From Eledone cirrhosa (taxonomy: Eukaryota), in contig OZ024744.1 of NCBI GenBank assembly GCA_964016885.1, positions 126,418,001 to 126,482,000 of the forward strand: a stretch of DNA of 64,000 bases, given 5' to 3'. Of this stretch, positions 21,216 through 51,500 are shown one piece after another; position 1 is the first letter of the stretch; every line of letters begins with the position of its first letter. The position numbers and the translations under genes are program-made. The notes under the pieces were generated by a model that ran no database searches, was not told the origin of the DNA, and saw only the letters and a program-made list of their open reading frames with translations.

Positions 21216-21289
21216 TCCATGGCTTGGCCTGCTAACCGACGCTATACCCAAGTCGGTCGCCATGCTTTCCAGCATAGAGTTACGTCTCT

Positions 21290-21410
21290 TTATGGTCTGA
21301 GTTCAAATCACGCCGAGGTTAACTTTGCCTTTCATCCTTACGGGGTCGATAAAATAAAGCACCAGTAATGTACTGGGGTCGATTTAATCGACTTTCCCCT
21401 CCTCTGCCAA
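21290..21410 (+). mobile_element. Octopus-type tRNA-derived SINE fragment (related pieces at ~2050, 29260, 32680, 37300, 37590, 54225, 59910, 61910)
   Basis: B-box-like gagttcaaat followed by the recurrent core aactttgcctttcatcc.t.cggggtcgataaaa...accagt...actggggtcgat. Confidence 0.7.
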
Positions 21411-21444
21411 ATGACACACACATGCATGGTTCGGGGGAACCTAC

Positions 21445-21480
<36 letters not shown>

Positions 21481-22359
21481 GTAGGTCACTGGTTGAGTCG
21501 GTATTAACCACACTAACTAAGGTACTCAATACATATTAGATATAGGTGTCTTTCTAATTGCTGGCCTTGTTCATAAGGTATACACAAGTATGATGTGTGT
21601 CTGTTTAACTGTACGTGTGAAAACATCGCGAAATTGCGCCTTTTAATATTTGAATATAAACAGTTAAAAAATAATTATTTTAGTAATTTTTAAATATCGA
21701 TAATGTGTATATAAATATTAGAAATCAATTTAATTAGTTCAGTAACATTACTCGGAGTTAAGATAAACCTTCATTTGAAGAAATTCGAGATTTGACCAAA
21801 TAAATAGATTATGTGATCAATAAAAAAAATATGTATACGCGCTTGAACGACGGGTTGCAGACAGTCAGGCATACAGACACATATTTTAAAGCGTGCGACG
21901 TTAAAAGTGTTACTCTCTCTCTTTTTAGATAGATAGACTTAATTAAAGCAGTTTCACTCTCTCTATATTTCATCAGCTCCCTCTCTCTTAAATTGAAAGA
22001 TTCATTAAGGCTGAAATAATCTAAACAGTAACATCATGTTTCGCCAGCTCTAGCTTGCGTCCAGAGATATACACACACATATATATATATTTTTTTTGTT
22101 ATCGAGTTGAGCTTTGCCAAGCATAGAATTCCAAATTTGACCATCTCCACTGAAAATGTTCGTGAAATAGTCTTTAAGAAGCAATTTAATTTTTTCCAAC
22201 TGAAACTGTAAGTATTTTAAAATTTATTTCAACATGGTCTTAAAAGATTGTTGGCTTTTTTTAAATTCATAACTATTTACTATGAAATATAAATTATTAA
22301 ATCCAATTTATTTGATAACCATGATTTGATTTTATAATTACCTGAATCACGTTAACATG

Positions 22360-22400
<41 letters not shown>

Positions 22401-22653
22401 GTGTGTGTATATATATATATATATAATAATTGTTTCTACGTTACGCAGTGTATTACTGGTACTGTATTTTACGATATTAAATATTAAATATTAACTATTA
22501 GATATTAAATATTAAATATTAGATATTAGATATTAAATATTAAATATGATATCCCTGAAATATATATAATGAAATAAATATGGTTTTATAAATGTAATTT
22601 CCATTTGTTTAATATCAAATATATATATATATATATATATGTATTTATGTATA

Positions 22654-22736
<83 letters not shown>

Positions 22737-22966
22737 GAGGCAGACACAGACACAGAATATCGTATATATCACACACACACAATTAAGACTTGACGTGTTG
22801 CAGACAGCCAGACATACAGAGAGATATTTTAAAGCGTGCGACCTTACATGCCTTACTCTTTCTCTTATCAAAAGAGAAAGAGTAATGCTAACACTTACGT
22901 CTACTTCACGCTCTCTTGAACCGTTACAGAAATTGCATCACATCTAATTATAACTTTGTACGTTTG

Positions 22967-23041
<75 letters not shown>

Positions 23042-23047
23042 GCACAC

Positions 23048-23080
<33 letters not shown>

Positions 23081-23083
23081 CAC

Positions 23084-23127
<44 letters not shown>

Positions 23128-23164
23128 GTGTATATATATATATATATATACACACACACGTGTG

Positions 23165-23197
<33 letters not shown>

Positions 23198-23290
23198 GTG
23201 TGTGTATATATATATATATCTCTCTCTCCCTGTCTCTCACTCTGCCTCTATCCCCCCTCTCTCTCTCTGTCTCTCCCCCCCCCTCTCTCT
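22360..23290. repeat. Microsatellite cluster: (TA)n, (ATATTAA/G)n, (CA)n, (TA)n(CA)nCG(TG)n palindromes, (CT)n; copy 55294-56224
   Basis: Seen directly. Confidence 0.95.
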
Positions 23291-23558
23291 CTCTAGTAGT
23301 AGAGAGAGAGAGAGATATAAACGTATAACCCTAAACCTAACCCATCTCTCTCACTCTCTCTCTCCCCCTCTCTCTCTCTTCTCTCTCTCACTCTCCCTCT
23401 ACCCCTCCCTCTCTCTATTTCTCTCTCTCTCTCTCCAGTAGTAGAGAGAGACAAAGAGAGAGAGAGATATAAACGTATAACCCTAACCAAACCCTAACCC
23501 AACTCTAACCCAACCCTAACCCTAACCCCAACCCTAACTCTAACCTAACCCTAACCCA

Positions 23559-23589
<31 letters not shown>

Positions 23590-23925
23590 ACCCCCTCTCT
23601 CTCTCTCTCTAGTAGTAGAGAGAGAGACAAAGAGAGAGAGAGAGATATAAACGTATAACCCTAACCCATCTCTCTCTCTCTATTTCTCCCCCCCTCTCTC
23701 TCTCTCTAGTAGTAGAGAGAGAGAGACAAAGAGAGAGAGAGATATAAACGTATAACCCTAACCCAACCCTAACCTCTCTCTCTCCCCCCTCTCTCTCTCT
23801 ATTCCCCCCCTCTCTCTCTCTCTCTAGTAGTAGAGAGAGAGACAGAGAGAGAGAGAGAGATAGATATAAACGTATAACCCTAACCCAACCCTAACCCATC
23901 TCTCTCTCTCTCTCTCTCTCTCTTT
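23291..23925. repeat. Composite tandem repeat (5 units) containing telomere-like CCCTAA tracts; copy 56225-56859
   Basis: Unit is tagtagtag(AG)n-atataaacgtataa-(CCCTAA variants)-cat(CT)n. Confidence 0.85.
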
Positions 23926-24839
23926 GTTTTTAACATTGTTTTGTTTTTCTTTTCTTTTCTTATTCAGATGACAAACGGCAGAGGATACAACAGAAGAAAA
24001 GAACAAAGATAATTATTATTATTATTACTATTATTATTTGTTTTATTATAATCAAAATATGCTGTTAGTTAGATCTGCATTGCGTACATTTTATATAATT
24101 TATGCCAGTTCCTTTTCTGCATATCGAACATGGCCATTTCCCTGACGGAATAGAGTTTTGTCCTCTTTCGTGACACAAAGTACAGCCAGCGGCATCATTG
24201 CGGACAGACTTAATCCCGAATTGCACTGACACACTGCCTCGCAATACGGAACACCGCACGTCTTTGATCTTCTTCCCGTCGATCAGCCTCCTTGCCATGC
24301 TAAGTACACCTGACGTCTAGCTTCTCTCTTAGCGGCGGCTTTATATTCTTCTCTACTCCCACTAATTTTCCAAGCATTCCATGCTAGCCTTTAGTCTCCA
24401 ATGGCCCGATCTACCGTGCTGTCCCACCACCATGTCACTCTCTGTCTGGTTGGAACTCTGATCCAGCCACAAGTTTAATCAGTAGCCTGCAATAAGTTGT
24501 CACATAAGAAAATCGAGTTCTCATGTATGTCATACGACTGTGAATCGTCTTCTTTTTCGTCATACACATATTGAAGGGCTTTCCTAAATTTCTATTTTAG
24601 TGAAATCTCTTTTAGCTTCCAGACCTTTCTTTTTTCCACATCTTCCTGTATGTCTCAATCATACCTGGAGCTGTCCAACATGACCATTGAAATCCCCTGC
24701 TAGCATAACGATGTCTCCGTCCTGTCATTGTGGCTGTTTGTAAAAATTGCTTGTAAATGAAGTCTTTCTTTTCTTTACCTAGCAGAAGCAATTAACACTA
24801 ACCCAACTGTAACACTAACCCTAACACTAACTTATGCAG

Positions 24840-26339: not shown

Positions 26340-26500
26340 TCTACAGTTTCTGTCTCAACTCGTCTATGCTTGGTCGTTCCCGCACATTGACATTGCACAT
26401 CCAACGGAGCATGCTTGCTTCATTTCTCTCCAGCCGTCGCATGTCCTCTGCAGTTGCTGCCCGTGTCTCACTACCATGCAGCATCGCGCATCTAAACCTG
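26340..26500 (-). mobile_element. RTE LINE fragment
   Basis: AMLHGSET...RRLERNEASMLRWMCNV in ORF 26341-26637. Confidence 0.7.
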
Positions 26501-26519
26501 GCCCTTACCCTAACCCCAA

Positions 26520-27372
26520 CCTCTTTGGTTTTCGTTTTCTCGACGGCTAGCCGCATTTCGTGATCCGCCTTTCGATTGCGCTTCCGTCGCGGCAAAAGAA
26601 TTGCCTTTCCAGACCGCCGTCGCCCGACCGGACCCATGATAGAAGACGTTCGTTACCGTTGGAGCAACGCAAATTACTCCTCGGTTGACGCCAAAAACGA
26701 ACGCCTTCCCGCCTCGCGCCGCCTTCTCCTCGCCGACCCTCGGCCTCGACGATTAGCCACTTTCCGTCACAGCAGTAGATACGCGTCCGTCGTAATAGCC
26801 GTCATTTTAACGCAGGAGAAACGCCTAATTGCCCTGCACCGCGTTTGACGGCGATCTACGACGGCGACGATGCGCGCACTCTTCCTTGCTGCGACGAAGG
26901 TTTCGGCTTTTCGTCGTGGACCCGGTCAGGTCATGCCGCTGACCTCGCGTTACGGCGACGCGAGAAGACGTTCGTTACCGCTGGAGCAACGCAAATTACT
27001 CCTCGGTTGACGCCAAAAACGAACGCCTCGCGCCGCCGCTTCCTCCTCGGCCTCGACGATTAGCCGCTTTCCGTCACAGCAGTAGATACGCGTCCATCGT
27101 AATAGCCGTCATTTTAACGCAGGAGAAACGCCTTGACGACGATATACGACGGGTCGACGACGCGCGCACTCTTTCTGCTGCGACGAAGGTTTTGGCTTTT
27201 CGTTGTGGACCCGGTCGGGTCATGCCTCTGACCTCGCGTTGCGTCGCCACCGCCGCGGCGGGCTTGGGTTTAGCCGTAGCTACCCTCGTTTTGCCAACGG
27301 CGACGCGAGAAGACGTTCGTTACCGCTGGAGCAACGCAAATTACTCCTCGGATGAGGCCAAAAACGAACGCT
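26520..27372 (+). repeat. GC-rich element homologous to 33490-34560 (putative rDNA spacer/ETS piece), internally duplicated
   Basis: Shares agaagacgttcgttaccgctggagcaacgcaaattactcctcgg (3 copies) and ccgtcacagcagtag...caggagaaacgcc (2 copies). Preceded by cttaccctaaccccaac. Confidence 0.75.
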
Positions 27373-27490: not shown

Positions 27491-27869
27491 GTATGTATCT
27501 TTCTCATTCTCTCTGTATGTATGTATGTATGTATATATATATAATTATATATTTATAGACATCCTGAAAGCTTTTTAAATGTCTGAGAGATTGGCTAAAT
27601 ATGTTTTGCAGGTATGACCAGTAAGAGAGAGGTAAGTTATTTCAAAACAATTCTTTGACCATTATTTTAAGGTACTATCTCAGTGTATTTTTAAATTGAC
27701 CTCTTGATAGGATGAAATGACCTGTATAATTTTTTTCATATTTAGATGGAATAGAAGAAAAACAAGAAAAATGAAATGAATTCAAACAGAAAATATACAC
27801 CAATGCCAATGGAGGTATGATTTCAGTTTAATCTTAACCTAATGACCACTTTACAGAGTGTACTGGATA

Positions 27870-33395: not shown

Positions 33396-33490
33396 TACCC
33401 TAACCCTAAACCTAACCCCAACTCCAACTCTGACCCTAAACCTAACCCCAACCCCAACCCCAACCCTAACCCTAACCCTAACCCTAACCC
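33396..33490 (-). repeat. Interstitial telomeric repeat (TTAGGG)n, variant to perfect
   Basis: ~16 CCCTAA/CCCCAA hexamers. The last four are perfect and abut the 172-bp array. Confidence 0.85.
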
Positions 33491-34247
33491 ACGATAGAAG
33501 ACGTTCGTTACCGCTGGAGCAACGCAAATTACTCCTCGGTTGACGCCAAAAACGAACGCCTTCTCGACGGCTAGCCGCATTTCGTGATCCGCCTTTCGAT
33601 TGCGCTTCCGTCGCGGAAAAAGAATTGCCTTTATAGGCCGCCGCCGCCCGACCGGACCCACGATAGAAGACGTTCGTTACCGCTGGAGCAACGCAAATTA
33701 CTCCTCGGTTGACGCCAAAAACGAACGCCTTCTCGACGGCTAGCCGCATTTCGTGATCCGCCTTTCGATTGCGCTTCCGTCGCGGAAAAAGAATTGCCTT
33801 TATAGGCCGCCGCCGCCGCCCGACCGGACCCACGATAGAAGACGTTCGTTACCGCTGGAGCAACGCAAATTACTCCTCGGTTGACGCCAAAAACGAACGC
33901 CTTCTCGACGGCTAGCCGCATTTCGTGATCCGCCTTTCGATTGCGCTTCCGTCGCGGAAAAAGAATTGCCTTTATAGGCCGCCGCCGCCGCCCGACCGGA
34001 CCCACGATAGAAGACGTTCGTTACCGCTGGAGCAACGCAAATTACTCCTCGGTTGACGCCAAAAACGAACGCCTTCTCGACGGCTAGCCGCATTTCGTGA
34101 TCCGCCTTTCGATTGCGCTTCCGTCGCGGAAAAAGAATTGCCTTTATAGGCCGCCGCCGCCGCCCGACCGGACCCACGATAGAAGACGTTCGTTACCGCT
34201 GGAGCAACGCAAATTACTCCTCGGTTGACGCCAAAAACGAACGCCTT
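33490..34247 (+). repeat. GC-rich 172-bp tandem repeat (4.4 copies), putative rDNA spacer subrepeats
   Basis: cacgatagaag at 33490, 33659, 33831, 34003 and 34175. Lies ~360 bp upstream of the 18S 5' end. Confidence 0.85.
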
Positions 34248-34605
34248 CCGGTTCGGGCGACGTAAAAGTCTGTAGCCTTTTCGCCGATCCTCGACGATTA
34301 TCCGCCTTCCGAACAACCGCCTTTCCGCCGTCACAGCAGTAGGTACTCGTCCGTCGTAATAGCCGTCATTTTAATGCAGGAGAAACGCCTAAATGCACTG
34401 CGATTGACGACGATCTACGACGCGCTTACTCTTCCTTGCTGCGACGAAGGTTTCGTTCGGCTTTTCGTCGTGGACCCGGTCAGGTCATGCCGCTGATCTC
34501 GCGTTGCGTCGTTACCGCTGGAGCAACGCAAATTACTCCTCGTTTAACGCCAACATCGAACGCGCTTCGGTTCTCGGTCGTCGTTGTTTTGTTTCGTGCG
34601 GAAGA

Positions 34606-34790
34606 TACCTGGGTGATCCTGCCAGTAGTCATATGCTTGTCTCAAAGCTTAAGCCATGCAAGTGGAAGTTCATGCCGTAAACGAAAATGGTGAAACCGCG
34701 AATGGCTCAGGAACCGGATCTAATCCTCGGGACCGTATTCCTCACCGCGAGGAGAGGATAACTGTGGCAATTCTAGAGCTAATACATGCA
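34606..34790 (+). rRNA. 18S rRNA 5' fragment (truncated, pseudogene-like)
   Basis: tacctgggtgatcctgccagtagtcatatgcttgtctcaaagcttaagccatgca ... ggataactgtggcaattctagagctaatacatgc matches the universal eukaryotic 18S start. Confidence 0.9.
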
Positions 34791-36050
34791 ATTGAGATCG
34801 GAGAGGGAGCGATCCGTCTGCTTGATTCCGATAACGAACGAGACATTCGTATCCGAAAGAACGTTTGTCTGGAAACTGGTGAGTCAGTGAGTCGAAAAAA
34901 AAAATATCTCGGTGGTAGTAGCAAATATTCGAACGAGACATTCGTATGCGAAAGAACGTTTGTCGGTGGTAGTAGCAAATATTCGAACGAGACATTCGTA
35001 TGCGAAAGAACGTTTGTCTGGAAGTGGCGATCCATGCCCGGTGGATAGTTGGTTCCGGGTTTTACTATGATTGTTGCAAAACAGAAACTTAAAGGGATTG
35101 ACAGAATTTGCGATTCCGGAGAGAGGGCGATCCGTCTGCTTGATTCCGATAACGAACGAGACATTCGTATCCGAGAGAACGTTTGTCTGGAAACTGGTGA
35201 GTCAGTGAGTCGAAAAAAAAATATCTCGGTGGTAGTAGCAAATATTCGAACGAGACATTCGTATGCGAAAGAAAAATATCTCGGTGGTAGTAGCAAATAT
35301 TCGAACGAGACATTCGTATGCGAAAGAACGTTTGTCTGGAAGTGGCGATCCATGCCCGGTGGATAGTTGGTTCCGGGTTTTACTATGATTGTTGCAAAAC
35401 AGAAACTTAAAGGGATTGACAGAATTTGCCATTCCGGAGAGGGGGCGATCCGTCTGCTTGATTCCGATAACGAACGAGACATTCGTATCCGAAAGAACGT
35501 TTGTCTGGAAACTGGTGAGTCAGTGAGTCGAAAAAAAAATATCTCGGTGGTAGTAGCAAATATTCGAACGAGACATTCGTATGCGAAAGAACGTTTGTCT
35601 GGAAGTGGCGATCCATGCTCGGTGGATAGTTGGTTCCGGGTTTTACTATGATTGTTGCAAAACAGAAACTTAAAGGGATTGACAGAATTTGCGATTCCGG
35701 AGAGGGGGCGATCCGTCTGCTTGATTCCGATAACGAACGAGACATTCGTATCCGAAAGAACGTTTGTCTGGAAACTGGTGAGTCAGTGAGTCGAAAAAAA
35801 AATATCTCGGTGGTAGTAGCAAATATTCGTATGCGAAAGAAAAGATCTCGGTGGTAGTAGCAAATATTCGAACGAGACATTCGTATGCGAAAGAAAAATA
35901 TCTCGGTGGTAGTAGCAAATATTCGAACGAGACATTCGTATTCGAAAGAACGTTTGTCTGGAAGTTGCGATCCATGCCCGGTGGATAGTTGGTTCCGGGC
36001 TTTACTATGATTGTTGCAAAACAGAAACTTAAAGGAATTGACAGAATTTT
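34791..36050 (+). pseudogene. Four tandem units (318/318/263/~340 bp) of scrambled 18S and 28S rRNA fragments
   Basis: 18S motifs gattccggagaggg, ttccgataacgaacgagac, cattcgtat, gaaacttaaagg.attgac. 28S motif ggtggtagtagcaaatattc.aacgaga. Confidence 0.8.
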
Positions 36051-36089
36051 CGAATCGACATCAACTCGGCTACGGCTATCCCGTCGAGT

Positions 36090-36430
36090 ACGAGAGTATC
36101 GCGGGATCAGAGCAACGGTTTGCTAGGCTGCCTCTGAGCGATAACGGCTGAACGCCTCCTCTAAGCCGGAACCCTAGCCGGACCCGAGTTGTTTTTCGAC
36201 AAGCGTCTCGACCTTCTTAAGGCCCATGCCTTAGTTTGGCGATTGCCGTCCGTTCGCCGACGGCGGCAGCGTCAGCGGAAATGCCATTCTGTGACGACTA
36301 CGACGATTCGTCGTCGTCGTCGTCCATTCGATTTCCTGAAAGAGATAGAGACTAAAGTGATCAAATTGTTCGGAGTTACGTGCTTAGTAGAGCAGCTACC
36401 ACACTGCAATCTATTGAGAGTTTTCTGACG
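36090..36430 (+). rRNA. 28S rRNA 3'-terminal fragment (degenerate)
   Basis: ctgaacgcctc..ctaagcc and gtagagcagctacc.cactgcaatctattga resemble the 28S 3' end. Confidence 0.7.
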
Positions 36431-37454
36431 AACGATACAATCCGCCCACGTGGCGCCAGAAAGGGAGAAGAAAAGAAAAGTTAGACGCCGCCGATCGATC
36501 GGTTCGTTGTTTTACGTGTACACAGCTTGTGTGTGTGTCTGTATGTGATACAAGCCGCCTATCCGTCTTCCAAGTAAGTTTTGTGTGTAGACTGCGGAAA
36601 GAAATCCAATCCGCCGTCTAGGCGGTTCTGCCGCCGACCCATACTTTTGCGAGTCGCTCCCGGGAAAGACAGGCGGCAAGACGGCGTGTATACACGACGC
36701 CTTCCGTCTTCCGCCTCGAACCCGGGCAAACGTTCCTTTATTCGTCCACGCCTTCCCGCTTCGATCGCGAGAAAGTAATCAATCTGTTTTGTGTGTGTGT
36801 CTGTGTGTGATACAAATTTGTTTTCTTAATTTGATAACCATGAATTGTTTCAACACCGGCCCTTTTAAGGGCCACTTATATTTTCAATAATCAGTTTAAA
36901 TGGGTTGCACCGTAGCCACTTGGTAATACACTGCAAATCTCCCGTCAATCTATGAAGGTTTTGTAGTAGATTAGATCAAAACACAATCAGCAAGACAGTA
37001 ATGGAATGAATAATATAAACATTTGTTTATAATTAAAGCCTTAAGATGTCCCTCCCTCCCTCCCTTCCTCCCTTCCTTCCTTCCTTCCTTCCTTCCTTAC
37101 GATATACACTTTAATAACATTGAAACTTATTTAATAAGTTTAAATTTTAAACACTTTTTATTCAGACGTACCGCGATAAGTAACTAGATATGTTCTAACG
37201 AATAATCCGCGATGTGGCGAGGATTACCGCGATAGGAAATTAGATACGTTCCAAAGAAATATCCGCGAAAAGTGAACCGCGATATAGCGGGTTCACCAGC
37301 CAGTGTATTACTGGTACTTTATTTTATCGACCCCCATAAGGATGAAAGGCAAAGTTAACTGTGCAATAACAAAGGGAGATAACCTCGTCTTTTTTTTTTT
37401 ACGGAGTTATTTCCCTTTAAATTTTATCTATTACTTATGATGATACAATTTAAT

Positions 37455-37852: not shown

Positions 37853-38100
37853 CCTAAGTTAAGTTGGGGCTAAGTTAAGTTGGGGCTAAGTTAAGTTGGG
37901 GCTAAGTTGAGTTGGGGTTAAGTTAAGTGGGGGTTAAGTTAAGCTGGGGTTAAGTTAAGTTGAGGTTAAGTTAAGTTGGGGTTAAGTCAAGTTGGGGTTA
38001 AGTTAAGTTGGGGTTAAGTTAGGTTGGGGTTAAGTTAGGTTGGGGTTAAGTTAGGTTGGGGTTAAGTTAAGTTGGGGTTAAGTTAGGTTGCGGTTAAGTT
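37853..38100 (+). repeat. 16-bp G-rich minisatellite (TTAAGTTA[A/G]GTTGGGG) x~15
   Basis: ggggc at 37866, 37882 and 37898. Abuts the start of satellite block 2. Confidence 0.9.
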
Positions 38101-41100
38101 ACATTCGCCGCCGGACTTCAGCTTCCTCATTTAGCATGGGCAGTTTTTCTTGAAAATCACACCACACACAGCAAATGTGTGTCCGCACATGTACCAGTAA
38201 TTACAGATGGATCCCACCACGGGCGGCTGGCCCACGATCGAAAAGGTTACTCCGCCTGCAAACGGTCATTTTCGAATTCGTTTTCTTCGAAGCACACGAT
38301 TCGCCGGCGGACTTCAGCTGCCTCATTTAGCATGGGCAGTTTTTCTCGAAAATCACACCACACACAGCAAATGTGTGTCCGCACATGTACCAGTAATTAC
38401 AGATCGATTCCGGTGAAAATTCACTGAAAACGGGCCATTCGGCCCTGTGCGTCGATCGTGGGCCGGCCGGATGTTGACGGATCGATGTGTAATTAGAAGT
38501 ACATGTGCGGACACTCATTGGCTGTGCGTGGTATGCATTTCAGCAAGATATCTCCGTAACATCAAGAGTTATGGCTGTGGAGGCACACCTAGTCAAACGT
38601 AAACAAGCTCTGGAGCGTATACGCTTCGCGATTTTGTTTACGTTTGACTAGGTGTGCCTCCACAGCCACAACTCTTGATGTTACGGAGATATCTTGCTGA
38701 AATGCATACCACGCACAGCCAATGAGTGTCCGCACATGTACTTCTAATTACACATCGATCCGTCAACATCCGGCCGGCCCACGATCGACGCACAGGGCCG
38801 GATGGCCCGTTTTCAGTGAATTTTCACCGGAATCGATCTGTAATTACTGGTACATGTGCGGACACACATTTGCTGTGTGTGGTGTGATTTTCACGAAAAA
38901 CTGCCCATGCTAAATGAGGAAGCTGAAGTCCGCCGGCGAATGGTGTGCTTCGAAGAAAACTAATTCGAAAATGACCGTTTGCAGGCGGAGTAACCTTTTC
39001 GATCGTGGGCCAGCCGCCCGTGGTGGGATACATCTGTAATTACTGGTACATGTGCGGACACACATTTGCTGTGTGTGGTGTGATTTTCGAGAAAGACTGC
39101 CCATGCTAAATGAGGAAGCTGAAGTCCGCCGGCGAATGGTGTGCTTCGAAGAAAACTAATTCGAAAATGACTATTTGCCGGCGGAATCACCTTTTCGGTC
39201 CTGGTCCGGCCGGATCTTGCCGGATCGATCGGAAATTTGTGGACCATGTTCGGAAGGCCATTGTGCATGTGTGATGAAAAAAATTTGTGTCGAAATCTTC
39301 TCGGAAAATAACGGATCGCCGGCGGAGATTGCCATTTCGATCGTGGGCCGGCCGGATCTTGTCGGATCGATTCGGACATATGTGCATCGTGTTCGCAAGG
39401 CCCTTGTCTATGTGTGGTGTGATTTTCATAAAGAAATTCCGAAAAACCCAGTTTTAAATCTGATTTCGCCAAAGAATTTTGGCTATCAGATCGGGTTGAA
39501 AGGTATGGTTTCAGGTCGATCTGAAAGTCTAAAATGGAATTCACTCGGTTAGCTAACTTTTGATATATCGGAGATATCTTTCTGAAAATCACACCACACA
39601 CTCCCAATGAGTGTCTGCACATGGACCAGTAATTACAGATGGATCCCACCACGGGCGGCCGGCCCACGATCGAAAAGGTTACTCCGAAGCACACCATTCG
39701 CCGGCGGAATTCATTTAGCATGGGCAGTTTTTCTCGAAAATCACACCACACACAGCCAATGAGTGTCCGCACATGTACCAGTAATTACAGATGGATCCCA
39801 CCACGGGCGGCTGGCCCACGATCGAAAAGGTTACTCCGCCTGCAAACGGTCATTTTCGAATTAGTTTTCTTCGAAGCACACCATTCGCCGGCGGACTTCA
39901 GCTTCCTCATTTAGCATGGGCAGTTTTTCTCGAAAATCACACCACACACAGCAAATGTGTGTCCGCACATGTACCAGTAATTACAGATCGATTCCGGTGA
40001 AAATTCACTGAAAACGGGCCATTCTGCCCTGTGCGTCGATCGTGGGCCGGCCGGATGTTGACGGATCGATGTGTAATTAGAAGTACATGTGCGGACACTC
40101 ATTGGCTGTGCGTGGTATGCATTTCAGCAAGATATCTCCGTAACATCAAGAGTTATGGCTGTGGAGGCACACCTAGTCAAACGTAAACAAGCTCTGGAGC
40201 GTATACGCTTCGCGATTTTGTTTACGTTTGACTAGGTGTGCCTCCACAGCCACAACTCTTGATGTTACGGAGATATCTTGCTGAAATGCATACCACGCAC
40301 AGCCAATGAGGGTCCGCACATGTACTTCTAATTACACATCGATCCGTCAACATCCGGCCGGCCCACGATCGACGCACAGGGCCGGATGGCCCGTTTTCAG
40401 TGAATTTTCACCGGAATCGATCTGTAATTACTGGTACATGTGCGGACACACATTTGCTGTGTGTGGTGTGATTTTCACGAAAAACTGCCCATGCTAAATG
40501 AGGAAGCTGAAGTCCGCCGGCGAATGGTGTGCTTCGAAGAAAACTAATTCGAAAATGACCGTTTGCAGGCGGAGTAACCTTTTCGATCGTGGGCCAGCCG
40601 CCCGTGGTGGGATACATCTGTAATTACTGGTACATGTGCGGACACACATTTGCTGTGTGTGGTGTGATTTTCGAGAAAGACTGCCCATGCTAAATGAGGA
40701 AGCTGAAGTCCGCCGGCGAATGGTGTGCTTCGAAGAAAACTAATTCGAAAATGACTATTTGCCGGCGGAATCACCTTTTCGGTCCTGGTCCGGCCGGATC
40801 TTGCCGGATCGATCGGAAATTTGTGGACCATGTTCGGAAGGCCATTGTGCATGTGTGGTGAAAAAAATTTGTGTCGAAATCTTCTCGGAAAATAACGGAT
40901 CGCCGGCGGAGATTGCCATTTCGATCGTGGGCCGGCCGGATCTTGTCGGATCGATTCGGACATATGTGCATCGTGTTCGCAAGGCCCTTGTCTATGTGTG
41001 GTATGATTTTCATAAAGAAATTCCGAAAAACCCAGTTTTAAATCTGATTTCGCCAAAGAATTTTGGCTATCAGATCGGGTTGAAAGGTATGGTTTCAGGT

Positions 41101-44100
41101 CGATCTGAAAGTCTAAAATGGAATTCACTCGGTTAGCTAACTTTTGATATATCGGAGATATCTTTCTGAAAATCACACCACACACTCCCAATGAGTGTCT
41201 GCACATGTACCAGTAATTACAGATGGATCCCACCACGGGCGGCCGGCCCACGATCGAAAAGGTTACTCCGAAGCACACCATTCGCCGGCGGAATTCATTT
41301 AGCATGGGCAGTTTTTCTCGAAAATCACACCACACACAGCCAATGAGTGTCCGCACATGTACCAGTAATTACAGATGGATCCCACCACGGGCGGCTGGCC
41401 CACGATCGAAAAGGTTACTCCGCCTGCAAACGGTCATTTTCGAATTAGTTTTCTTCGAAGCACACCATTCGCCGGCGGACTTCAGCTTCCTCATTTAGCA
41501 TGGGCAGTTTTTCTCGAAAATCACACCACACACAGCAAATGTGTGTCCGCACATGTACCAGTAATTACAGATCGATTCCGGTGAAAATTCACTGAAAACG
41601 GGCCATTCTGCCCTGTGCGTCGATCGTGGGCCGGCCGGATGTTGACGGATCGATGTGTAATTAGAAGTACATGTGCGGACACTCATTGGCTGTGCGTGGT
41701 ATGCATTTCAGCAAGATATCTCCGTAACATCAAGAGTTATGGCTGTGGAGGCACACCTAGTCAAACGTAAACAAGCTCTGGAGCGTATACGCTTCGCGAT
41801 TTTGTTTACGTTTGACTAGGTGTGCCTCCACAGCCACAACTCTTGATGTTACGGAGATATCTTGCTGAAATGCATACCACGCACAGCCAATGAGGGTCCG
41901 CACATGTACTTCTAATTACACATCGATCCGTCAACATCCGGCCGGCCCACGATCGACGCACAGGGCCGGATGGCCCGTTTTCAGTGAATTTTCACCGGAA
42001 TCGATCTGTAATTACTGGTACATGTGCGGACACACATTTGCTGTGTGTGGTGTGATTTTCACGAAAAACTGCCCATGCTAAATGAGGAAGCTGAAGTCCG
42101 CCGGCGAATGGTGTGCTTCGAAGAAAACTAATTCGAAAATGACCGTTTGCAGGCGGAGTAACCTTTTCGATCGTGGGCCAGCCGCCCGTGGTGGGATACA
42201 TCTGTAATTACTGGTACATGTGCGGACACACATTTGCTGTGTGTGGTGTGATTTTCGAGAAAGACTGCCCATGCTAAATGAGGAAGCTGAAGTCCGCCGG
42301 CGAATGGTGTGCTTCGAAGAAAACTAATTCGAAAATGACTATTTGCCGGCGGAATCACCTTTTCGGTCCTGGTCCGGCCGGATCTTGCCGGATCGATCGG
42401 AAATTTGTGGACCATGTTCGGAAGGCCATTGTGCATGTGTGGTGAAAAAAATTTGTGTCGAAATCTTCTCGGAAAATAACGGATCGCCGGCGGAGATTGC
42501 CATTTCGATCGTGGGCCGGCCGGATCTTGTCGGATCGATTCGGACATATGTGCATCGTGTTCGCAAGGCCCTTGTCTATGTGTGGTATGATTTTCATAAA
42601 GAAATTCCGAAAAACCCAGTTTTAAATCTGATTTCGCCAAAGAATTTTGGCTATCAGATCGGGTTGAAAGGTATGGTTTCAGGTCGATCTGAAAGTCTAA
42701 AATGGAATTCACTCGGTTAGCTAACTTTTGATATATCGGAGATATCTTTCTGAAAATCACACCACACACTCCCAATGAGTGTCTGCACATGTACCAGTAA
42801 TTACAGATGGATCCCACCACGGGCGGCCGGCCCACGATCGAAAAGGTTACTCCGAAGCACACCATTCGCCGGCGGAATTCATTTAGCATGGGCAGTTTTT
42901 CTCGAAAATCACACCACACACAGCCAATGAGTGTCCGCACATGTACCAGTAATTACAGATGGATCCCACCACGGGCGGCTGGCCCACGATCGAAAAGGTT
43001 ACTCCGCCTGCAAACGGTCATTTTCGAATTAGTTTTCTTCGAAGCACACCATTCGCCGGCGGACTTCAGCTTCCTCATTTAGCATGGGCAGTTTTTCTCG
43101 AAAATCACACCACACACAGCAAATGTGTGTCCGCACATGTACCAGTAATTACAGATCGATTCCGGTGAAAATTCACTGAAAACGGGCCATTCTGCCCTGT
43201 GCGTCGATCGTGGGCCGGCCGGATGTTGACGGATCGATGTGTAATTAGAAGTACATGTGCGGACACTCATTGGCTGTGCGTGGTATGCATTTCAGCAAGA
43301 TATCTCCGTAACATCAAGAGTTATGGCTGTGGAGGCACACCTAGTCAAACGTAAACAAGCTCTGGAGCGTATACGCTTCGCGATTTTGTTTACGTTTGAC
43401 TAGGTGTGCCTCCACAGCCACAACTCTTGATGTTACGGAGATATCTTGCTGAAATGCATACCACGCACAGCCAATGAGGGTCCGCACATGTACTTCTAAT
43501 TACACATCGATCCGTCAACATCCGGCCGGCCCACGATCGACGCACAGGGCCGGATGGCCCGTTTTCAGTGAATTTTCACCGGAATCGATCTGTAATTACT
43601 GGTACATGTGCGGACACACATTTGCTGTGTGTGGTGTGATTTTCACGAAAAACTGCCCATGCTAAATGAGGAAGCTGAAGTCCGCCGGCGAATGGTGTGC
43701 TTCGAAGAAAACTAATTCGAAAATGACCGTTTGCAGGCGGAGTAACCTTTTCGATCGTGGGCCAGCCGCCCGTGGTGGGATACATCTGTAATTACTGGTA
43801 CATGTGCGGACACACATTTGCTGTGTGTGGTGTGATTTTCGAGAAAGACTGCCCATGCTAAATGAGGAAGCTGAAGTCCGCCGGCGAATGGTGTGCTTCG
43901 AAGAAAACTAATTCGAAAATGACTATTTGCCGGCGGAATCACCTTTTCGGTCCTGGTCCGGCCGGATCTTGCCGGATCGATCGGAAATTTGTGGACCATG
44001 TTCGGAAGGCCATTGTGCATGTGTGGTGAAAAAAATTTGTGTCGAAATCTTCTCGGAAAATAACGGATCGCCGGCGGAGATTGCCATTTCGATCGTGGGC

Positions 44101-45240
44101 CGGCCGGATCTTGTCGGATCGATTCGGACATATGTGCATCGTGTTCGCAAGGCCCTTGTCTATGTGTGGTATGATTTTCATAAAGAAATTCCGAAAAACC
44201 CAGTTTTAAATCTGATTTCGCCAAAGAATTTTGGCTATCAGATCGGGTTGAAAGGTATGGTTTCAGGTCGATCTGAAAGTCTAAAATGGAATTCACTCGG
44301 TTAGCTAACTATTGATATATCGGAGATATCTTTCTGAAAATCACACCACACACTCCCAATGAGTGTCTGCACATGTACCAGTAATTACAGATGGATCCCA
44401 CCACGGGCGGCCGGCCCACGATCGAAAAGGTTACTCCGAAGCACACCATTCGCCGGCGGAATTCATTTAGCATGGGCAGTTTTTCTCGAACATCACACCA
44501 CACACAGCCAATGAGTGTCCGCACATGTACCAGTAATTACAGATGGATCCCACCACGGGCGGCTGGCCCACGATCGAAAAGGTTACTCCGCCTGCAAACG
44601 GTCATTTTCGAATTAGTTTTCTTCGAAGCACACCATTCGCCGGCGGACTTCAGCTTCCTCATTTAGCATGGGCAGTTTTTCTTGAAAATCACACCACACA
44701 CAGCAAATGTGTGTCCGCACATGTACCAGTAATTACAGATCGATTCCGGTGAAAATTCACTGAAAACGGGCCATTCGGCCCTGTGCGTCGATCGTGGGCC
44801 GGCCGGATGTTGACGGATCGATGTGTAATTAGAAGTACATGTGCGGACACTCATTGGCTGTGCGTGGTATGCATTTCACTAAGATATCTCCGTAACATCA
44901 AGAGTTATGGCTGTGGAGGCACACCTAGTCAAACGTAAACAAGGTCTGGAGCGTTTACGCTTCGCGATTTTGTTTACGTTTGACTAGGTGTGCCTCCACA
45001 GCGACAACTCTTGATGTTACGGAGATATCTTGCTGAAATTCATACCACGCACAGCCAATGAGTGTCCGCACATGTACCTGTAATTACACATCGATCCGAC
45101 GACGGACAGAGTATTCGGTTTATTTTCTTGACATATTTCTTTACATATTGTCCAGGCATGCACTTTTTCCATGATTAGTTCTGTTGACGGCCCGCTTTCC
45201 AAAATACCTTATCCTGTGCAACGCCGGGTACCACTGCTAG
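38101..45240. repeat. 1584-bp palindromic satellite, block 2 (5 centres), ending in the Helitron-like end
   Basis: ORF periodicity 39175/40759/42343/43927. Centres at ~38620, 40204, 41788, 43372, 44956. Confidence 0.95.
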
Positions 45241-45459
45241 TATATATATGTGTATGTATATATATATATATATATTGGTAAACGGAATAGAAAATTGTGA
45301 CAAATTGTTCACAGTGAAAAATAGTTTAATTAGGAATAAGTGATAATTAGTAATAGTATTGGTTAGTATTAAGTTTTGGTTTTAAGTTTTACCGGTTGCG
45401 CATTTCTAATGCTTTTCAAAAATAATTTTGAGATAGAGCGTCCGTGATGTTTGCTCTGA

Positions 45460-45511
<52 letters not shown>

Positions 45512-48500
45512 AACAGTAGAAAGGAAAAAGATTTTTTCAGTAGAAATTGCTGAAGAGATTCTTTCAGTGTAATTTCAAAACATTAATTTATTTATAAAGT
45601 GGATATTTCCACATTTAATAATGGCACTGGGTTCAGCATTATATACATTGTCAATTGTGGATTCTACTTTTGGCACAAGGGCTGCAATTATCCAGTACAT
45701 TACTGGTACTTTATTATTTATACAAATAATAATTGTTTCTACTTTTGGCACAAGGGCAGCAATTACCCAGTACATTACTGGTACTTTATTATTTATACAA
45801 ATAATAATTGTTTCTACTTTAGGCACAAGGTCAGCAATTACCCAGTACATTACTGGTACTTTATTATTTATACAAATAATAATTGTTTCTACTTTAGGCA
45901 CAAGGTCAGCAATTACCCCAGTACTTTATTTTATCGACCCCGTAAGGATGAAAGAAAAGTTAACCTCAACGGGATTTGAACTCAGTCTGTAAAGGGAGGT
46001 AACTGCTGGATTAATTTGGTTAATTAAGTTAACAGAAATTATGAACCGGTTTCTACAGAGCCTTCTGGACATTTAACCCTTTAGCATTTAAACCAGCCAT
46101 ACCTAGCCAGAATACTCTCACATCTTTCTGTTCAAACCAGCCATAACTGGCCACTCATACTGACGTTAAGGTATTGTTCTCAATATAAATAATATCAAAA
46201 TCTCATAGATTCGATATTATATGAGATAATTATGTAAGATAAAGCCTTTACCACAAAAATACAATAGTATATATAGAGTAATAAAAATGCTAAAGGGTAA
46301 AAGTAGCTTATTATTTTGTGAGCTCTTGCTACTTATTGCTCTTGTGCATCAAGAACATACACAGCTTACATTTTGTTGCTAATCTCACTGAGATCCAACT
46401 ACATCTCTTGTTTATCCATAGTTTGGAATTTCTACCTACTCCTTTCCTTTAGAATGATCAAGGCCATTTTCTTGTGGGGATCTAGGCCCTGTTTTCCTTT
46501 CTATTTTGCCAAGTTATCTTACATCACTTTCATTCTAGACCATGCTTCCAGGTTTGGAATTTCTCCTCTAATTTTACCACAGATTAAGTGACAAGGGTTC
46601 AATCATGTGCATACAGGAGTTCCCATGGACAGCCAGTAATATGTAATAGCCTGCAGGATGATAATAAACAGAAGAGGGTTAATTACAGAGCCCTGATAGA
46701 GGGTTAATAACAGAGCCCTGATAGACTTGTTCACTCAACTCCTCACTATAGCCATCATTACTTTTAACCTTACTGACTGCTCCTCCATACATGGCTTTTA
46801 CTGCTCTCACAAGCCACTCATATACCCCTAGTTTTCTAAGTTATACACCAGATTAGGGAAGGGGGAAGTCTCACAGAAGCTCTCTCTGGGTCAACAAATG
46901 CCAAGTAGAGGGGCTTATTTTAGCTAGGTACTACTCTTGCAGTTGCCACACAAGGAAGAGGACATCAGTGGTACTTTTACCTGGCACAAATCCAAACTTC
47001 ATCTCATCTAGGTTAACTTGGTCCCTAATCAGCTGTGTTATAAATCTAACACCTTCATGAAGTGGTCCATCTAATATCTCTATAGTTTTCTAGCTCTAGT
47101 ACATCTCCTTTGCCCTTGTAGCAGTTGATGATGATGATACTACACCATTTATTTGGTATGACACCATTTTGTATTACATGCTGTACGATACCAGTGGTTA
47201 AGATGTGACCCACCATCCCAGATACTTTCAGTATCTCAGCAACTATCACCAATGGACAAGATACTTTCTCTGTCTTCATATCCTTAATTACCTTACTTCA
47301 TATCCTTAATTACCTTACTGCTTACTTGTATGGCTGGACCCTCTGTTGGGCCCACTTTCCGTAGACTATCTTCCTCCCATGCATTCTCCTCATTCAGTAA
47401 TCTTTCATAAAGGCATTTCCATGTTACAAAGGTTGGCTGAAAAGTTCATAGACTATCAATGATAGCATGATGCTAGAACTGTGAAATCTTGCCTGCATTA
47501 ATTTCAACTCTTCTTATTAATAACTGCATTGTTTCCTTCCAGGGACTATGTTGAAAAATAAACCTCATTTGGTCATTCCATGAGTGTATCTTGGTCTGCC
47601 TATGAACTTTTCAGCTGACCCTATTCAGCATCAGTGAGCCCAAATGCCCCATTATCATCCTGGACACACTTTACCCCAACATCACAATTTGCCCTCACAC
47701 ACTGCCTCACAATCCTGAACATCTCATGTATTTCATCCTCACATCATAAAACCAACTGAAATTATATATTCTCTGCTTCCCTCCTTGCAAAGAATACTTC
47801 TTGCCTAGCTTCCTGTAGTGTACCCTCCAGCTGCCTCCATTCTGCCATTATTCCATGCCTGTCTCTTGGCCTTAACTGTCTCATCTACCCTAGTGTTTCA
47901 CCACCAAGATACTCTCCTCTCTGAAGCCCTGCTCCAGCCACAGATCTAGTTTGACACCTTCAGCAAAGGTTCTTTAAGGAACTCCCACTGTTCCCCTATA
48001 TTGTATGTTTCTATTTGTTCTTCCTTACTGTTGTAAAGATCAAACAAAATATCTCTAAATTTGGAACTGGCTGAGGGGTCCTTTAACTTCCATATCCTTC
48101 TCCTCCAAGTTGCCCTCAGTCTTCAAGTTCATCTAAGTCTATGAAATCACTAACTACTGGGTTATGTTGGGAGGTGCATTCTTCCCCAGGGGGTGGGGAT
48201 TGTGTGTTTACAAATGTCAATATCTCATCTTCTGGTGAGGATAAAAATCTGACTGGCATGCTCCTCTGACCAATAGGTGTTGAAGTGGTTGTCGGGTAAA
48301 CGTTAAGACCCTCTGATATACATATATATATATATACTAGCAGTGGTACCCGGCGTTGCACGGGATAACGTATTTCGGAACGCGGGCCGCCATCTTCCAC
48401 TTCAGCCGGTCGCCCTAAAGTGTTGGCTATTCAGTCTACTTGAGGCCAGTTGGTGAGGGGGGGGTAAAGCTTTCAGTGTGCTACTACCCTCACGGTCAAA

Positions 48501-51500
48501 TAGAAAGGGAGAGGAAGAAAAGTCAGCGTTAATATCGTGCTACACGTTTGAAAGGTTGGATGACCTTAGAGTTCACCAGGGTGGGGGGTTCTAAAAGTAT
48601 CTATCTTGGTATTTTATCTTAGAAGTAATCATTACAGAGTGTACTGGGTGTATTTTAGTGGGCAGTAATTCCATAAAGAACACAGTATAATCTGTGGACA
48701 CAAGCCTTGCAGTGTGATTACAGGCAGGTTAATGGGAAAGATAGATTATATATGTGACATGATGTACATGAGAAGTGAGGACACAGACCACACATGAAAT
48801 AGATTCCTACAACTGTCAGGGAGGCTCCCTAGAATTACAGATGACATATTTCAATATCTCGGTGATCAAGTTAGCAGTGGAGGAAGAATCTCTAAAAGTG
48901 TAATACCCAGGATAAGGACAGGCTGGAAGAAGTTTAGAGTACTGTTCCATCTGTTGACAACAAAGGGCTTCTCTCTCAGAATGGAGGCTAGACTGCTTGA
49001 TACTTATGTGTGGTCTGCAATCTACACCCCAGCCATGCCCCTTCCACTACCACTCCTTAGCTATTTCTCTCCATTAATACTCCTCACATTTCAAGCAGTT
49101 TTCTCATCTCAATGAAAGAAAAATATTGGGCTCAAGAGAAGTCTTCAGTTATGCCATGGTGTGGCAACCTCCCTAGGGTTGGGCAGAGTGTAAATGAGAG
49201 TGAAATTAGGTATGAGAGGGATCAGATGCAGTATACAAGAGAGTAGATTACATTGGTATGGTCATGTGATGGGTATAAAGGATGACAGCTGTATAAAAAT
49301 GTGCTGGGCAATCAAAGTTGATGGAAGTTATGAAGGCGGAAGACCTAGGATGAGGTGATAAAAGATGACTTTGCACAATTGCAACTCTCAAAGACAATGA
49401 CACAGGATAGAGATCTTATTTATGTTTATTTACGTTTAGCGTAATCGATTTGTTTTCGATTTGTTTCCATATCACCACGCGTTTTATTTCATAGTCATAG
49501 TTATCAAGTTAGAAAACAAATGAAGTTCAGGGGGCCGACACTACCGACTTTCTTAAAGAAAAACAATTTAACGCGGGTAACTACAAGATAACCTTGATTT
49601 GTAATACTGGCAGACATTGAAATATTTAAAATTCTCTATAATTTCCTTTTTATCAGGTCCCAAGCAGTAACACTTCGAATATTTCAATAAATATTAACCA
49701 GTTACTCCCGTTTTCGTTCTTTCTTTAATGTGCACTCTTTCTTTCTTTAATGTGCATTCTTTCTTTCCTCTACACTGCATCTGACCTCTCTTATACCTAG
49801 TTTCTCTCTCAGTTTATTAATGCTTGTTGTTCATGCACACTATTACACATCTATCAGATCCTGTAAACTTCATTTCTTTCCAGTCTTTATAGGTCCTCTG
49901 AATATATTGCCCTGGTCTCACTTCAATGTAACATTGCTGTTTGTACACAGACTTCATACAATCTGCCTTTCACTTTCAGGGGAAATCATTTTGTAGGCAT
50001 CAGTAGTAGTAGCTCCCTAAACTGTTTCCATCCCATTCTCACTCAGGCTACTGTACCTTCAGAACACCCACCTCCACTGTTAATTTGGTTAATTAAGTTA
50101 ACAGAAATTATGAACCGGTTTCTACAGAGCCTTCTGGACATTTAACCCTTTAGCATTTAAACCAGCCATACCTAGCCAGAATACTCTCACATCTTTCTGT
50201 TCAAACCAGCCATAACTGGCCACTCATACTGACGTTAAGGTATTGTTCTCAATATAAATAATATCAAAATCTCATAGATTCGATATTATATGAGATAATT
50301 ATGTAAGATAAAGCCTTTACCACAAAAATACAATAGTATATATAGAGTAATAAAAATGCTAAAGGGTAAAAGTAGCTTATTATTTTGTGAGCTCTTGCTA
50401 CTTATTGCTCTTGTGCATCAAGAACATACACAGCTTACATTTTGTTGCTAATCTCACTGAGATCCAACTACATCTCTTGTTTATCCATAGTTTGGAATTT
50501 CTACCTACTCCTTTCCTTTAGAATGATCAAGGCCATTTTCTTGTGGGGATCTAGGCCCTGTTTTCCTTTCTATTTTGCCAAGTTATCTTACATCACTTTC
50601 ATTCTAGACCATGCTTCCAGGTTTGGAATTTCTCCTCTAATTTTACCACAGATTAAGTGACAAGGGTTCAATCATGTGCATACAGGAGTTCCCATGGACA
50701 GCCAGTAATATGTAATAGCCTGCAGGATGATAATAAACAGAAGAGGGTTAATTACAGAGCCCTGATAGAGGGTTAATAACAGAGCCCTGATAGACTTGTT
50801 CACTCAACTCCTCACTATAGCCATCATTACTTTTAACCTTACTGACTGCTCCTCCATACATGGCTTTTACTGCTCTCACAAGCCACTCATATACCCCTAG
50901 TTTTCTAAGTTATACACCAGATTAGGGAAGGGGGAAGTCTCACAGAAGCTCTCTCTGGGTCAACAAATGCCAAGTAGAGGGGCTTATTTTAGCTAGGTAC
51001 TACTCTTGCAGTTGCCACACAAGGAAGAGGACATCAGTGGTACTTTTACCTGGCACAAATCCAAACTTCATCTCATCTAGGTTAACTTGGTCCCTAATCA
51101 GCTGTGTTATAAATCTAACACCTTCATGAAGTGGTCCATCTAATATCTCTATAGTTTTCTAGCTCTAGTACATCTCCTTTGCCCTTGTAGCAGTTGATGA
51201 TGATGATACTACACCATTTATTTGGTATGACACCATTTTGTATTACATGCTGTACGATACCAGTGGTTAAGATGTGACCCACCATCCCAGATACTTTCAG
51301 TATCTCAGCAACTATCACCAATGGACAAGATACTTTCTCTGTCTTCATATCCTTAATTACCTTACTTCATATCCTTAATTACCTTACTGCTTACTTGTAT
51401 GGCTGGACCCTCTGTTGGGCCCACTTTCCGTAGACTATCTTCCTCCCATGCATTCTCCTCATTCAGTAATCTTTCATAAAGGCATTTCCATGTTACAAAG

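Follow-up and report, generated by a model that had tools for sequence, protein, structure and literature searches.

Several described systems resemble the locus studied here. In tomato, a diverged rDNA array and an IGS-derived satellite have been reported, and truncated tandem units arose from a single variant via recombination, according to the available part of the source (PMC2679016). The 2D8 pericentromeric repeat of potato is presented, in the accessible portions of two sources, as an rDNA-related multi-kb tandem repeat with a 5.9-kb IGS-like unit (PMC8122249, PMC2656509). Human dispersed rDNA pseudogenes are described, as far as the accessible text goes, as degraded, containing spacer, located off the arrays and enriched in centromere-proximal regions, and a DNA route was argued for them (PMC5381670). 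Mobile elements with rDNA-derived pieces and many copies include SINE28, Pokey/mPok and 5S-SINEs, as outlined in the part available (PMC10946416).

The window, i.e. the whole stretch of DNA analyzed, comprises 64,000 nt of Eledone cirrhosa (GCA_964016885.1, OZ024744.1, positions 126,418,001 to 126,482,000). It contains a unit that is probably an internally collapsed rDNA pseudogene, promoterless as judged by a predicted start motif, with a satellite of scrambled rRNA scraps as its middle. The unit recurs within a tandem macrosatellite of ~37-kb repeats, in which it probably rides along as an inert passenger coding for no usable rRNA. Its parts were mapped to the genome's own full rDNA repeat (18S, 2,876 nt; 28S, 6,342 nt). 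The features were as follows:

23966–56899, + strand, one macrosatellite period (32.9 kb) bearing the unit
26493–27371, + strand, second 5'ETS-derived piece of the same macro-unit, preceded by a short CCCTAA-like stretch
33398–33490, + strand, degenerate CCCTAA-type tract (93 nt), 4 perfect units adjoining the rDNA piece
33487–34248, + strand, 172-bp repeat (×4.4), starting at −1948 from 18S
34249–34510, + strand, 5'ETS leader, by sequence match to the canonical 5'ETS
34509–34568, + strand, extra 60-nt ETS-motif copy (score 94; best of 60 shuffles, 38)
34606–34796, + strand, 18S rRNA nt 1–191, with the last 44 nt of ETS directly upstream
34799–36056, + strand, internal satellite of stitched rDNA scraps, 4 monomers in the window copy
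36058–36445, + strand, 28S rRNA 3' end (~5881–6342), with deletions of 26, 33, and 15 nt
36446–36824, + strand, trailer: the first ~45 nt past the 28S end, then spacer subrepeats
36823–36897, + strand, half of a dispersed palindromic repeat, an arm of which scores as a histone 3' stem-loop
37650–37855, + strand, separate 28S fragment (nt 691–895; BLAST 87.5%), in the same orientation as the unit
37855–38101, + strand, 16-bp satellite (×15.4), G-rich strand

Every part was present in the order given in the original prediction, all on the + strand, and donor mapping to the full repeat bore out that the unit is rDNA-derived with its body replaced. Leader and trailer both match this genome's spacers, as had been expected. 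The (CCCTAA)n tract is there, but only 4 of its units are perfect and the remainder are degenerate; it overlaps the rDNA piece by 4 nt (ACCC) and measured 87–99 nt over 40 tracts (some copies counted twice). The telomere repeat was considered as a component of the canonical spacer and rejected (0 CCCTAA in a 50-kb stretch of C12). The 172-bp repeat derives from a repeated motif of the canonical 5'ETS via deletion and duplication, and its anchor motif is found in 3–10 copies per unit (20 units). The leader (34289–34510) aligned to canonical positions −1122 to −882, from which it differs by substitution at 9 of 221 columns, and the 60-nt ETS-motif copy occupies the place of ~837 deleted nt of 5'ETS (−881 to −45).

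The 18S 5' end, predicted to be exact, does lie at 34606, but over its 191 nt it differs from canonical 18S by 4 substitutions, one of them T8>G, and by 2 indels; these changes are private, occurring in none of 11 other rDNA copies or orphons. The 28S 3' end has 30 substitutions in 381 columns and was matched by Rfam RF02543 at 36060–36442 (61.6 bits, E 4e-13). The spacer subrepeats of the trailer originate 0.7–2.6 kb downstream of canonical 28S. Over the 835 columns aligned with the C12 rDNA repeat, the unit showed 48 substitutions, and indels were numerous. A functional 45S gene has intact 18S, 5.8S, and 28S; here, 191 of 2,876 nt of 18S and scraps are left, the 28S 3' end is deleted in places, and no 5.8S was found in the unit. 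No tRNA was found, and no Pfam family scored above the cut-off in the 29 of 83 listed ORFs that were scanned (one sub-threshold HIT match).

Upstream of its 5'ETS, a functional 45S gene also has a Pol I promoter with a start site. On the canonical repeat, the last TATATAGGG motif (the predicted Pol I initiator) lies 223 nt upstream of the point at which the unit begins, so the predicted promoter is missing, and the proposal that the Pol I unit is preserved at both ends finds no support. One canonical spacer contains 11 of these motifs, the last of them at −2167; neither the window nor 130 kb of the array contains any. The predicted start site is based on the consensus sequence of other organisms (PMC6589552, PMC6730533).

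The predicted rRNA mosaic is present and scored better than shuffles; in addition, it is itself a tandem satellite that includes a 19-nt ITS1 piece. Its scraps are 18S 575–592, 18S 2042–2080, ITS1 289–307, and 18S 1843–1900, together with 28S 2083–2121 (1–7 times per monomer) and a weak match to 28S 1392–1418 (2 of 60 shuffles as good). Compared with the full rDNA repeat, the monomer has 4 exact matches of at least 18 nt, and 200 shuffles gave none of at least 16 nt. Matches to rDNA cover 203 of 318 nt of the monomer; ~115 nt are without a significant donor, and candidate donors for 34866–34895 and 34860–34910 were no better than chance (49 and 39 of 60 shuffles as good, respectively). By eye, most identifiable scraps appear to be conserved rRNA cores and not large expansion segments, a pattern that is no obvious consequence of random collapse. 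No unusual fold of the monomer was found (z −1.24). The assembly contains 979 monomers of 263–372 bp, with a mean pairwise difference of 1.1% between segments (n = 263). The inner satellite ranges from 2 to 53 monomers per unit and from 730 to 19,010 bp (median 5,793; 43 units), and that of the window is the second shortest. The predicted length of ~3.3 kb thus fits the window copy but is not typical.

Copies with the same junctions, as had been anticipated, are numerous: at least 59 exact ones in the assembly, 43 of them in one tandem array on C28 (1.76 Mb; median unit spacing 37.5 kb), which lies ~10 Mb from the end of the 136.5-Mb scaffold. The other copies are at a second locus on C18 and on five unplaced contigs. 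In the window, 5896–23965 recurs at 38829–56899 (99.8%), and an assembly gap (56900–57099) directly follows the macrosatellite period. Marker order is constant across all mapped units of the C28 array. The 301 bp upstream were matched without any difference in all 28 cases, and 34 of 41 matches to the leader and 18S were mismatch-free (some copies counted twice in both). Because the copies have identical flanks (on C28, C18, C178, C398, C760, C1185, and C1204), they were multiplied as part of the ~37-kb tandem unit. The flanking DNA is as uniform as the unit, so nothing marks the unit as conserved. Head-to-tail tandem arrangement, homogenization, variable repeat number, and an rDNA-homologous monomer place the structure among rDNA-derived satellites, with the homology residing in coding cores and ITS1, not in IGS subrepeats. 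Like an orphon, the unit comes from the species' own rDNA, lies outside intact arrays, and has disabling changes, but orphons are isolated and of low copy number; with 59 junction copies, the unit is not a lone orphon, which had been one of the alternatives.

To the right of the unit, the stem-loop was tried as a histone gene 3' end and rejected, as it is an arm of the palindromic repeat (131 occurrences, often in back-to-back pairs 51 nt apart). With regard to the heterochromatic or pericentromeric location of rDNA-derived satellites, the C28 array has a large block of the 16-bp satellite immediately to its left (sampled at 124.60–124.69 Mb, a stretch that includes a gap). A 196-bp satellite found no support as a general centromere repeat (among the first 100 of 898 matches, 1 was on C2 and the others on C18 and C28). 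A further CCCTAA-type tract is located in the window at 23478–23557, and 20 TTAGGG were counted in 10 kb at C28:124.55 Mb.

The repair mechanism and the order of events we infer as follows. A piece of an rDNA repeat would have left the true arrays and inserted among ordinary repeats, where ~20 other rDNA pieces of this genome also sit. Repeated microhomology-guided deletions and template switches may then have stripped the promoter, most of the ETS, and nearly all of the 18S-ITS-28S body, so that a ~320-bp patchwork would have remained. The donor pairs have short words in common at the joins: GGAGC (18S 588–592/2042–2046), a 10-nt word (18S 2071–2080/28S 2107–2116), and TTCG at the 28S/ITS1 join. 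There are other deleted orphons, for example one at C10:26.69 Mb in which 18S 1651 is joined to 28S 2816. The patchwork and the 172-bp ETS repeat could subsequently have been expanded by unequal exchange, and the entire ~30-kb neighborhood would have been amplified and homogenized in tandem. A DNA route is favored since the unit includes spacer from past the 28S end. As the copies are near-identical, any selection is hidden, and inertness is argued from the anatomy alone.

An origin of the left junction by telomerase healing, either of an rDNA fragment left by breakage or of linear extrachromosomal DNA, with later re-integration, is unlikely; as an old event it is possible but unsupported, and it concerns the origin only, being compatible with the later steps of the passenger explanation. 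Where the 4 perfect CCCTAA units adjoin the ETS, they are oriented as at a telomere and have ACCC in common with it, although a join of telomere repeats at such short microhomology is also predicted for end-joining into a tract that was already there. Outside clusters, tracts of this kind are few (the matches listed include ~14 separate sites for the first 208 Mb of C1), and a CCCTAA-like stretch also precedes the second ETS piece; yet the neighborhood is rich in them (23478–23557, the 16-bp satellite, C28:124.55 Mb), and no repeat was found within 300 nt of 16 left and 7 right edges of other rDNA pieces (one left edge is not a true boundary, and some edges are on a common flank). In a natural telomere, perfect units are distal and degenerate ones proximal. 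Here, the perfect units are closest to the rDNA and the degenerate ones most distant, which, as the reverse, counts against healing. The tract is interstitial in all mapped copies, neither terminal nor recurrent in mobilized rDNA, and the predicted chromosome end to the left was not borne out: ordinary repeat DNA continues leftward in every mapped copy, and the array is ~10 Mb from the scaffold end. The original prediction of a dispersed element fared no better. A non-autonomous mobile element built from rDNA and moving between the CCCTAA tract and the trailer would account for the multicopy state and the copies on C18 and the five unplaced contigs, but SINE28- or MITE-like elements show independent insertions with different flanks, and here the copies are tandem with identical flanks. 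By inspection, no target-site duplication, poly(A) tail, or terminal inverted repeat was found, and among the monomer matches listed none was on C1–C17; this reading is already largely refuted and highly improbable.

That the structure is an artefact of chimeric rRNA amplicons or mis-joined reads is scarcely credible. Several scraps fall on what are presumably common rRNA primer sites, and assembly gaps bound the C28 array on both sides, which makes its placement and its length a matter of scaffolding. Nevertheless, a separately assembled contig of run X1, which may be the assembled sample, spans the 18S-mosaic join with 0 differences (depth 3,770), run X5 from another study has identical stretches of 495 and 276 nt that cover the 28S end with its deletions, the trailer, and the flank on the right, and repeat number varies between units in an orderly way and without gaps. 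It is doubtful that the array is a transcribed regulatory locus, in which read-through or a cryptic promoter would yield long or small RNAs with perfect matches to conserved rRNA cores; these might adjust the silencing of rDNA or interact with nucleolar factors in a pseudo-NOR-like manner. Rather doubtful, too, is a "shadow rDNA" locus, a second, non-ribosomal one that matches true rDNA in copy number and the satellite's long or small RNAs of which would regulate rDNA dose or nucleolar chromatin. Over the ETS/18S start in run X1, mini-type (3,693), canonical-type (3,633), and junction (3,770) contigs were equally deep, which indicates a large dose; the rDNA pieces of the macro-unit are all co-oriented, and one ETS motif was kept and amplified again and again. 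A 289-nt contig of run X11 (labeled as the same organism, another sample; RNA or DNA) spans a monomer-monomer joint at depth 114, with canonical 28S pieces at ~3,500, but at ~17 monomers per unit (979/59) it is obtainable from trace genomic DNA. The predicted promoter motif and a stable monomer fold are absent, the stem-loop past the trailer is part of a dispersed palindromic repeat, and the pieces are sense to rRNA, so silencing would need antisense or double-stranded RNA. Contigs of X11 were absent over 36270–36489 and 36578–36885, and those of X5 and X6 over most of the mosaic; as these are filtered contig sets, the gaps carry no weight. Of the runs compared (8 of 24 listed), X4–X8 are labeled as other organisms. 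Pieces of the mosaic or the unit in X4, X7, and X8 differ little or not at all, and in X5 and X6 identical leader pieces (depth 6–21) occur beside a different rRNA of their own (depth >1,000). The unit pieces in X4–X8 are probably carry-over of source-species DNA, not cross-species conservation.

As a probable promoterless rDNA pseudogene carried in a macrosatellite, the unit illustrates how a satellite is born, with several stages present in a single genome and the donor known: intact rDNA, deleted orphons, the collapsed unit, the inner satellite, and the megabase array. In one run, the depth of the 18S 5' end is about twice as high because of the array, and three conserved rRNA words are multiplied ~thousandfold. 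The array would inflate rDNA copy-number estimates and probe signals and mislead nucleolar-organizer FISH mapping and small-RNA assignment in the species. Transcription of the array, if it occurs, would offer a direct way to test for rDNA regulation by rDNA-derived repeats.

No report of such a structure was found in the literature covered, which was mostly at abstract level and outside subscription papers and supplements. In the original study, the 2D8 repeat of potato reportedly also contains rearranged 18S/25S parts; if this is right, it is a closer precedent. Like the Eledone unit, 2D8 is located outside the true arrays and is variable in structure and number, in the accessible portions of the sources (PMC8122249, PMC2656509). 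Human pseudogenes, in the text available, are decaying near-full-length or fragmentary copies, whereas the Eledone unit was amplified anew, reaching at least 59 near-identical copies that contain an internal satellite (PMC5381670). SINE28, Pokey/mPok, and 5S-SINEs move individually, according to the part available, and the Eledone unit has fixed flanks and no element ends (PMC10946416). The tomato array shares an inner subrepeat expanding towards a satellite, but its satellite, as far as the available account goes, came from a 53-bp spacer subrepeat with the coding sequence lost (PMC2679016). In Eledone, pieces of 18S, ITS1, and 28S were used, and the repeating unit, unlike that of tomato as described there, includes ~28 kb of unrelated DNA. 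A satellite from rRNA coding cores is unusual, the published cases compared being derived from spacers.

The intact rDNA repeats of the genome were located through a 5.8S search, and the window was placed at C28:126,418,001-126,482,000 of the 3.0-Gb assembly. An octopus-like cephalopod is suggested by the great length of the rRNAs, the zinc-finger-like arrays, and the microsatellite load. The repeat on scaffold C12 (22.5 kb; 18S 2,876 nt, 28S 6,342 nt) was used as the canonical reference. Its spacer contained 11 copies of TATATAGGG at ~710 bp spacing, the final copy at −2167 from the 18S. A link between this motif and the Pol I start site of plants is described (PMC6589552), and TATA and GGGG boxes are given as general to plants and animals (PMC6730533). 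The last copy was considered the putative Pol I start site. The features of the window were as follows:

~33398-36824, mini unit (collapsed rDNA copy) with CCCTAA-type tract, 172-bp repeats, leader, 18S 1-191, mosaic, 28S 3' end, and trailer
34799-36056, mosaic, joined to the 18S at ~34797
36060-36442, LSU 3' end (Rfam, E 4e-13)
36823-36897, dispersed palindromic repeat with 131 exact 20-nt matches, concentrated on C18; its arms exceed the Rfam cut-off as a histone 3' stem-loop and probably give rise to spurious Histone3 annotations
5018-12164 and 38102-45098, 196-bp satellite organised as ~1.58-kb blocks that have long inverted arms
27600-27850, short segments bordered by splice-like sequence in the macro-unit (the ~37-kb tandem repeat carrying the mini unit), which by eye may be exon remnants
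57101-57562 and 63172-63998, − strand, 84-bp-period repeats resembling C2H2 zinc-finger arrays, past the gap that ends the array

All the parts described for the mini unit and their shared orientation were confirmed in the window, the SSU 5' match being weak (Rfam). The leader and trailer matched rDNA spacer, the leader the canonical 5'ETS and the trailer running into spacer subrepeats 0.7-2.6 kb beyond the 28S end; a 60-nt copy of a repeated ETS motif stood in place of ~837 nt of ETS. The 18S 5' end had been called exact, but nt 1-191 carried four substitutions and two indels relative to the C12 repeat, none of them present in any of the 11 other rDNA copies compared; T8>G lies in what we take to be the first 18S helix. 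The 28S 3' end differed from the canonical one by 30 substitutions in 381 columns and by deletions of 26, 33, and 15 nt. Survival of both Pol I unit ends was not supported: the left edge corresponded to canonical −1948, i.e., 223 nt downstream of the last TATATAGGG, and this motif was not found in the window nor in 130 kb of the array. Given this starting point and the missing motif, the 172-bp repeats and leader are of 5'ETS and not promoter origin.

The mosaic was a satellite with monomers mostly of 263-372 bp (265 monomers read). Firm donors were 18S 2042-2080, 28S 2083-2121, and 18S 1864-1900 (E 1e-8 or better), as well as ITS1 289-307 (19/19 nt exact); 18S 575-592 and 28S 1392-1418 were weaker, and ~115 of 318 nt had no assigned rDNA donor. 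Four exact matches of at least 18 nt were shared by the monomer and rDNA, while 200 shuffles yielded none of at least 16 nt. The donor pieces were non-collinear with the rDNA order, and donor pairs shared words of 5, 10, and 4 nt at three joins. Microhomology-mediated deletion and template switching is an established mechanism, for which short shared words at joins are the expected pattern, and we infer that it acted on the mosaic.

Copies with the same 18S-mosaic junction were counted in the assembly using the 31-nt join, which gave 59 exact matches (43 on C28, one on C18, and the other 15 divided among five unplaced contigs). Its canonical counterpart had 22, spread across eight chromosomes; the assembly probably represents the true rDNA arrays in collapsed form. 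The monomer word occurred 979 times. On C28 (136.5 Mb), the mini units had a median spacing of 37.5 kb across 1.76 Mb, and this array was bounded by assembly gaps at both ends. The mosaic ranged from 730 to 19,010 bp over the 43 C28 units (median 5,793), the 1,258 bp in the window ranking second shortest. The same set of markers recurred around the mini units: debris resembling retroelements, another piece of ETS, a fragment of 28S (nt 691-895), and satellites of 16 and 196 bp. The C18 copy was truncated on its right side. Among the matches listed, the 196-bp satellite was nearly restricted to the C28 array and C18:6.73-6.85 Mb. Left of the array, across the gap, a large block of the telomere-like 16-bp satellite (C28:124.60-124.69 Mb) was oriented opposite to the short copy within each macro-unit. 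All 28 upstream-flank matches were identical and 34 of 41 leader and 18S matches were mismatch-free (some copies fetched twice). As the flanks were as uniform as the unit, amplification or homogenisation was therefore taken to be recent, postdating the ~5% divergence from rDNA.

Contigs of sequencing runs, none of those listed being recorded as RNA, were also compared, with contig depth as a rough measure. In X1, which may be the sample behind the assembly, a 76-nt contig crossed the 18S-mosaic join with 0 differences at depth 3,770. Over the ETS/18S start, its mini-type contigs reached 3,693 vs 3,633 for the canonical type, which suggests, roughly, that this sample has similar numbers of mini and true rDNA units. 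X5, from another study, contained 495- and 276-nt stretches identical to the 3' part of the unit and its flank, and X11 a monomer-monomer joint at depth 114. These contigs confirm the unit DNA as real and are evidence of neither expression nor conservation. Matches in runs labelled as other organisms resemble carry-over. Leader pieces specific to the unit were present in both X5 and X6, and in X5 trailer and flank as well, with 0 differences, at low depth and with little mosaic among the contigs; filtering, or carry-over from a conspecific whose core differs, is possible.

We consider it quite probable that one dispersed rDNA piece collapsed; it would then have bred the inner satellite, and the collapsed unit and its ~30-kb neighbourhood would have been carried up in copy number together. 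A regulatory transcript from the array is unlikely; the RNA fold of the monomer was ordinary (z −1.24). A mobile element is nearly excluded, and so is an artefact, the least probable of all.

The left junction may have arisen by telomerase healing, a minority explanation. The CCCTAA-type tract, 87-99 nt in the unit copies and not found in the canonical C12 repeat, adjoins the ETS with about four perfect units and a 4-nt word common to both. Since perfect tracts of such size were sparse on C1 outside one cluster (among the matches listed), the abutment is not trivially chance. Against healing, none of 16 left edges among the other rDNA pieces had the tract, and similar tracts were abundant in the neighbourhood of the unit. 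The chromosome end proposed to its left from the CCCTAA polarity is not one now.

Collapse of a dispersed piece, the preferred origin, has its setting in a genome with rDNA pieces dispersed across it, some with large deletions of their own. A deleted orphon at C10:26.687-26.697 Mb was independent (18S 1651 fused to 28S 2816), extended upstream beyond the promoter motif position, terminated in inverted spacer repeats, and had a ~3.6-kb insert following 28S 3763, presumably an R2-like site. Copies at C2:166.88 Mb and C4:352.07-352.12 Mb stopped at ~28S 3700-3765 (C12 numbering), which we take to be the R2 target site. Pieces at C3:291.16 Mb and C6:98.23 Mb, both 18S nt 1-411 at 100% identity from the mature 5' end, adjoined a (TA)n tract and had the same end base followed by similar SINE-like sequence; they are likely retroposed rRNA-SINE chimeras.

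Within the searchable literature, no report of such a nested rRNA-core satellite structure was found. Judged from the accessible parts of the sources, the nearest described cases include the tomato diverged-rDNA satellite (PMC2679016), potato 2D8, and dispersed human rDNA pseudogenes (PMC5381670). Unlike these, as far as described there, the Eledone satellite consists of rRNA coding cores and lies inside a pseudogene, itself inside a macrosatellite of rDNA-like copy number.
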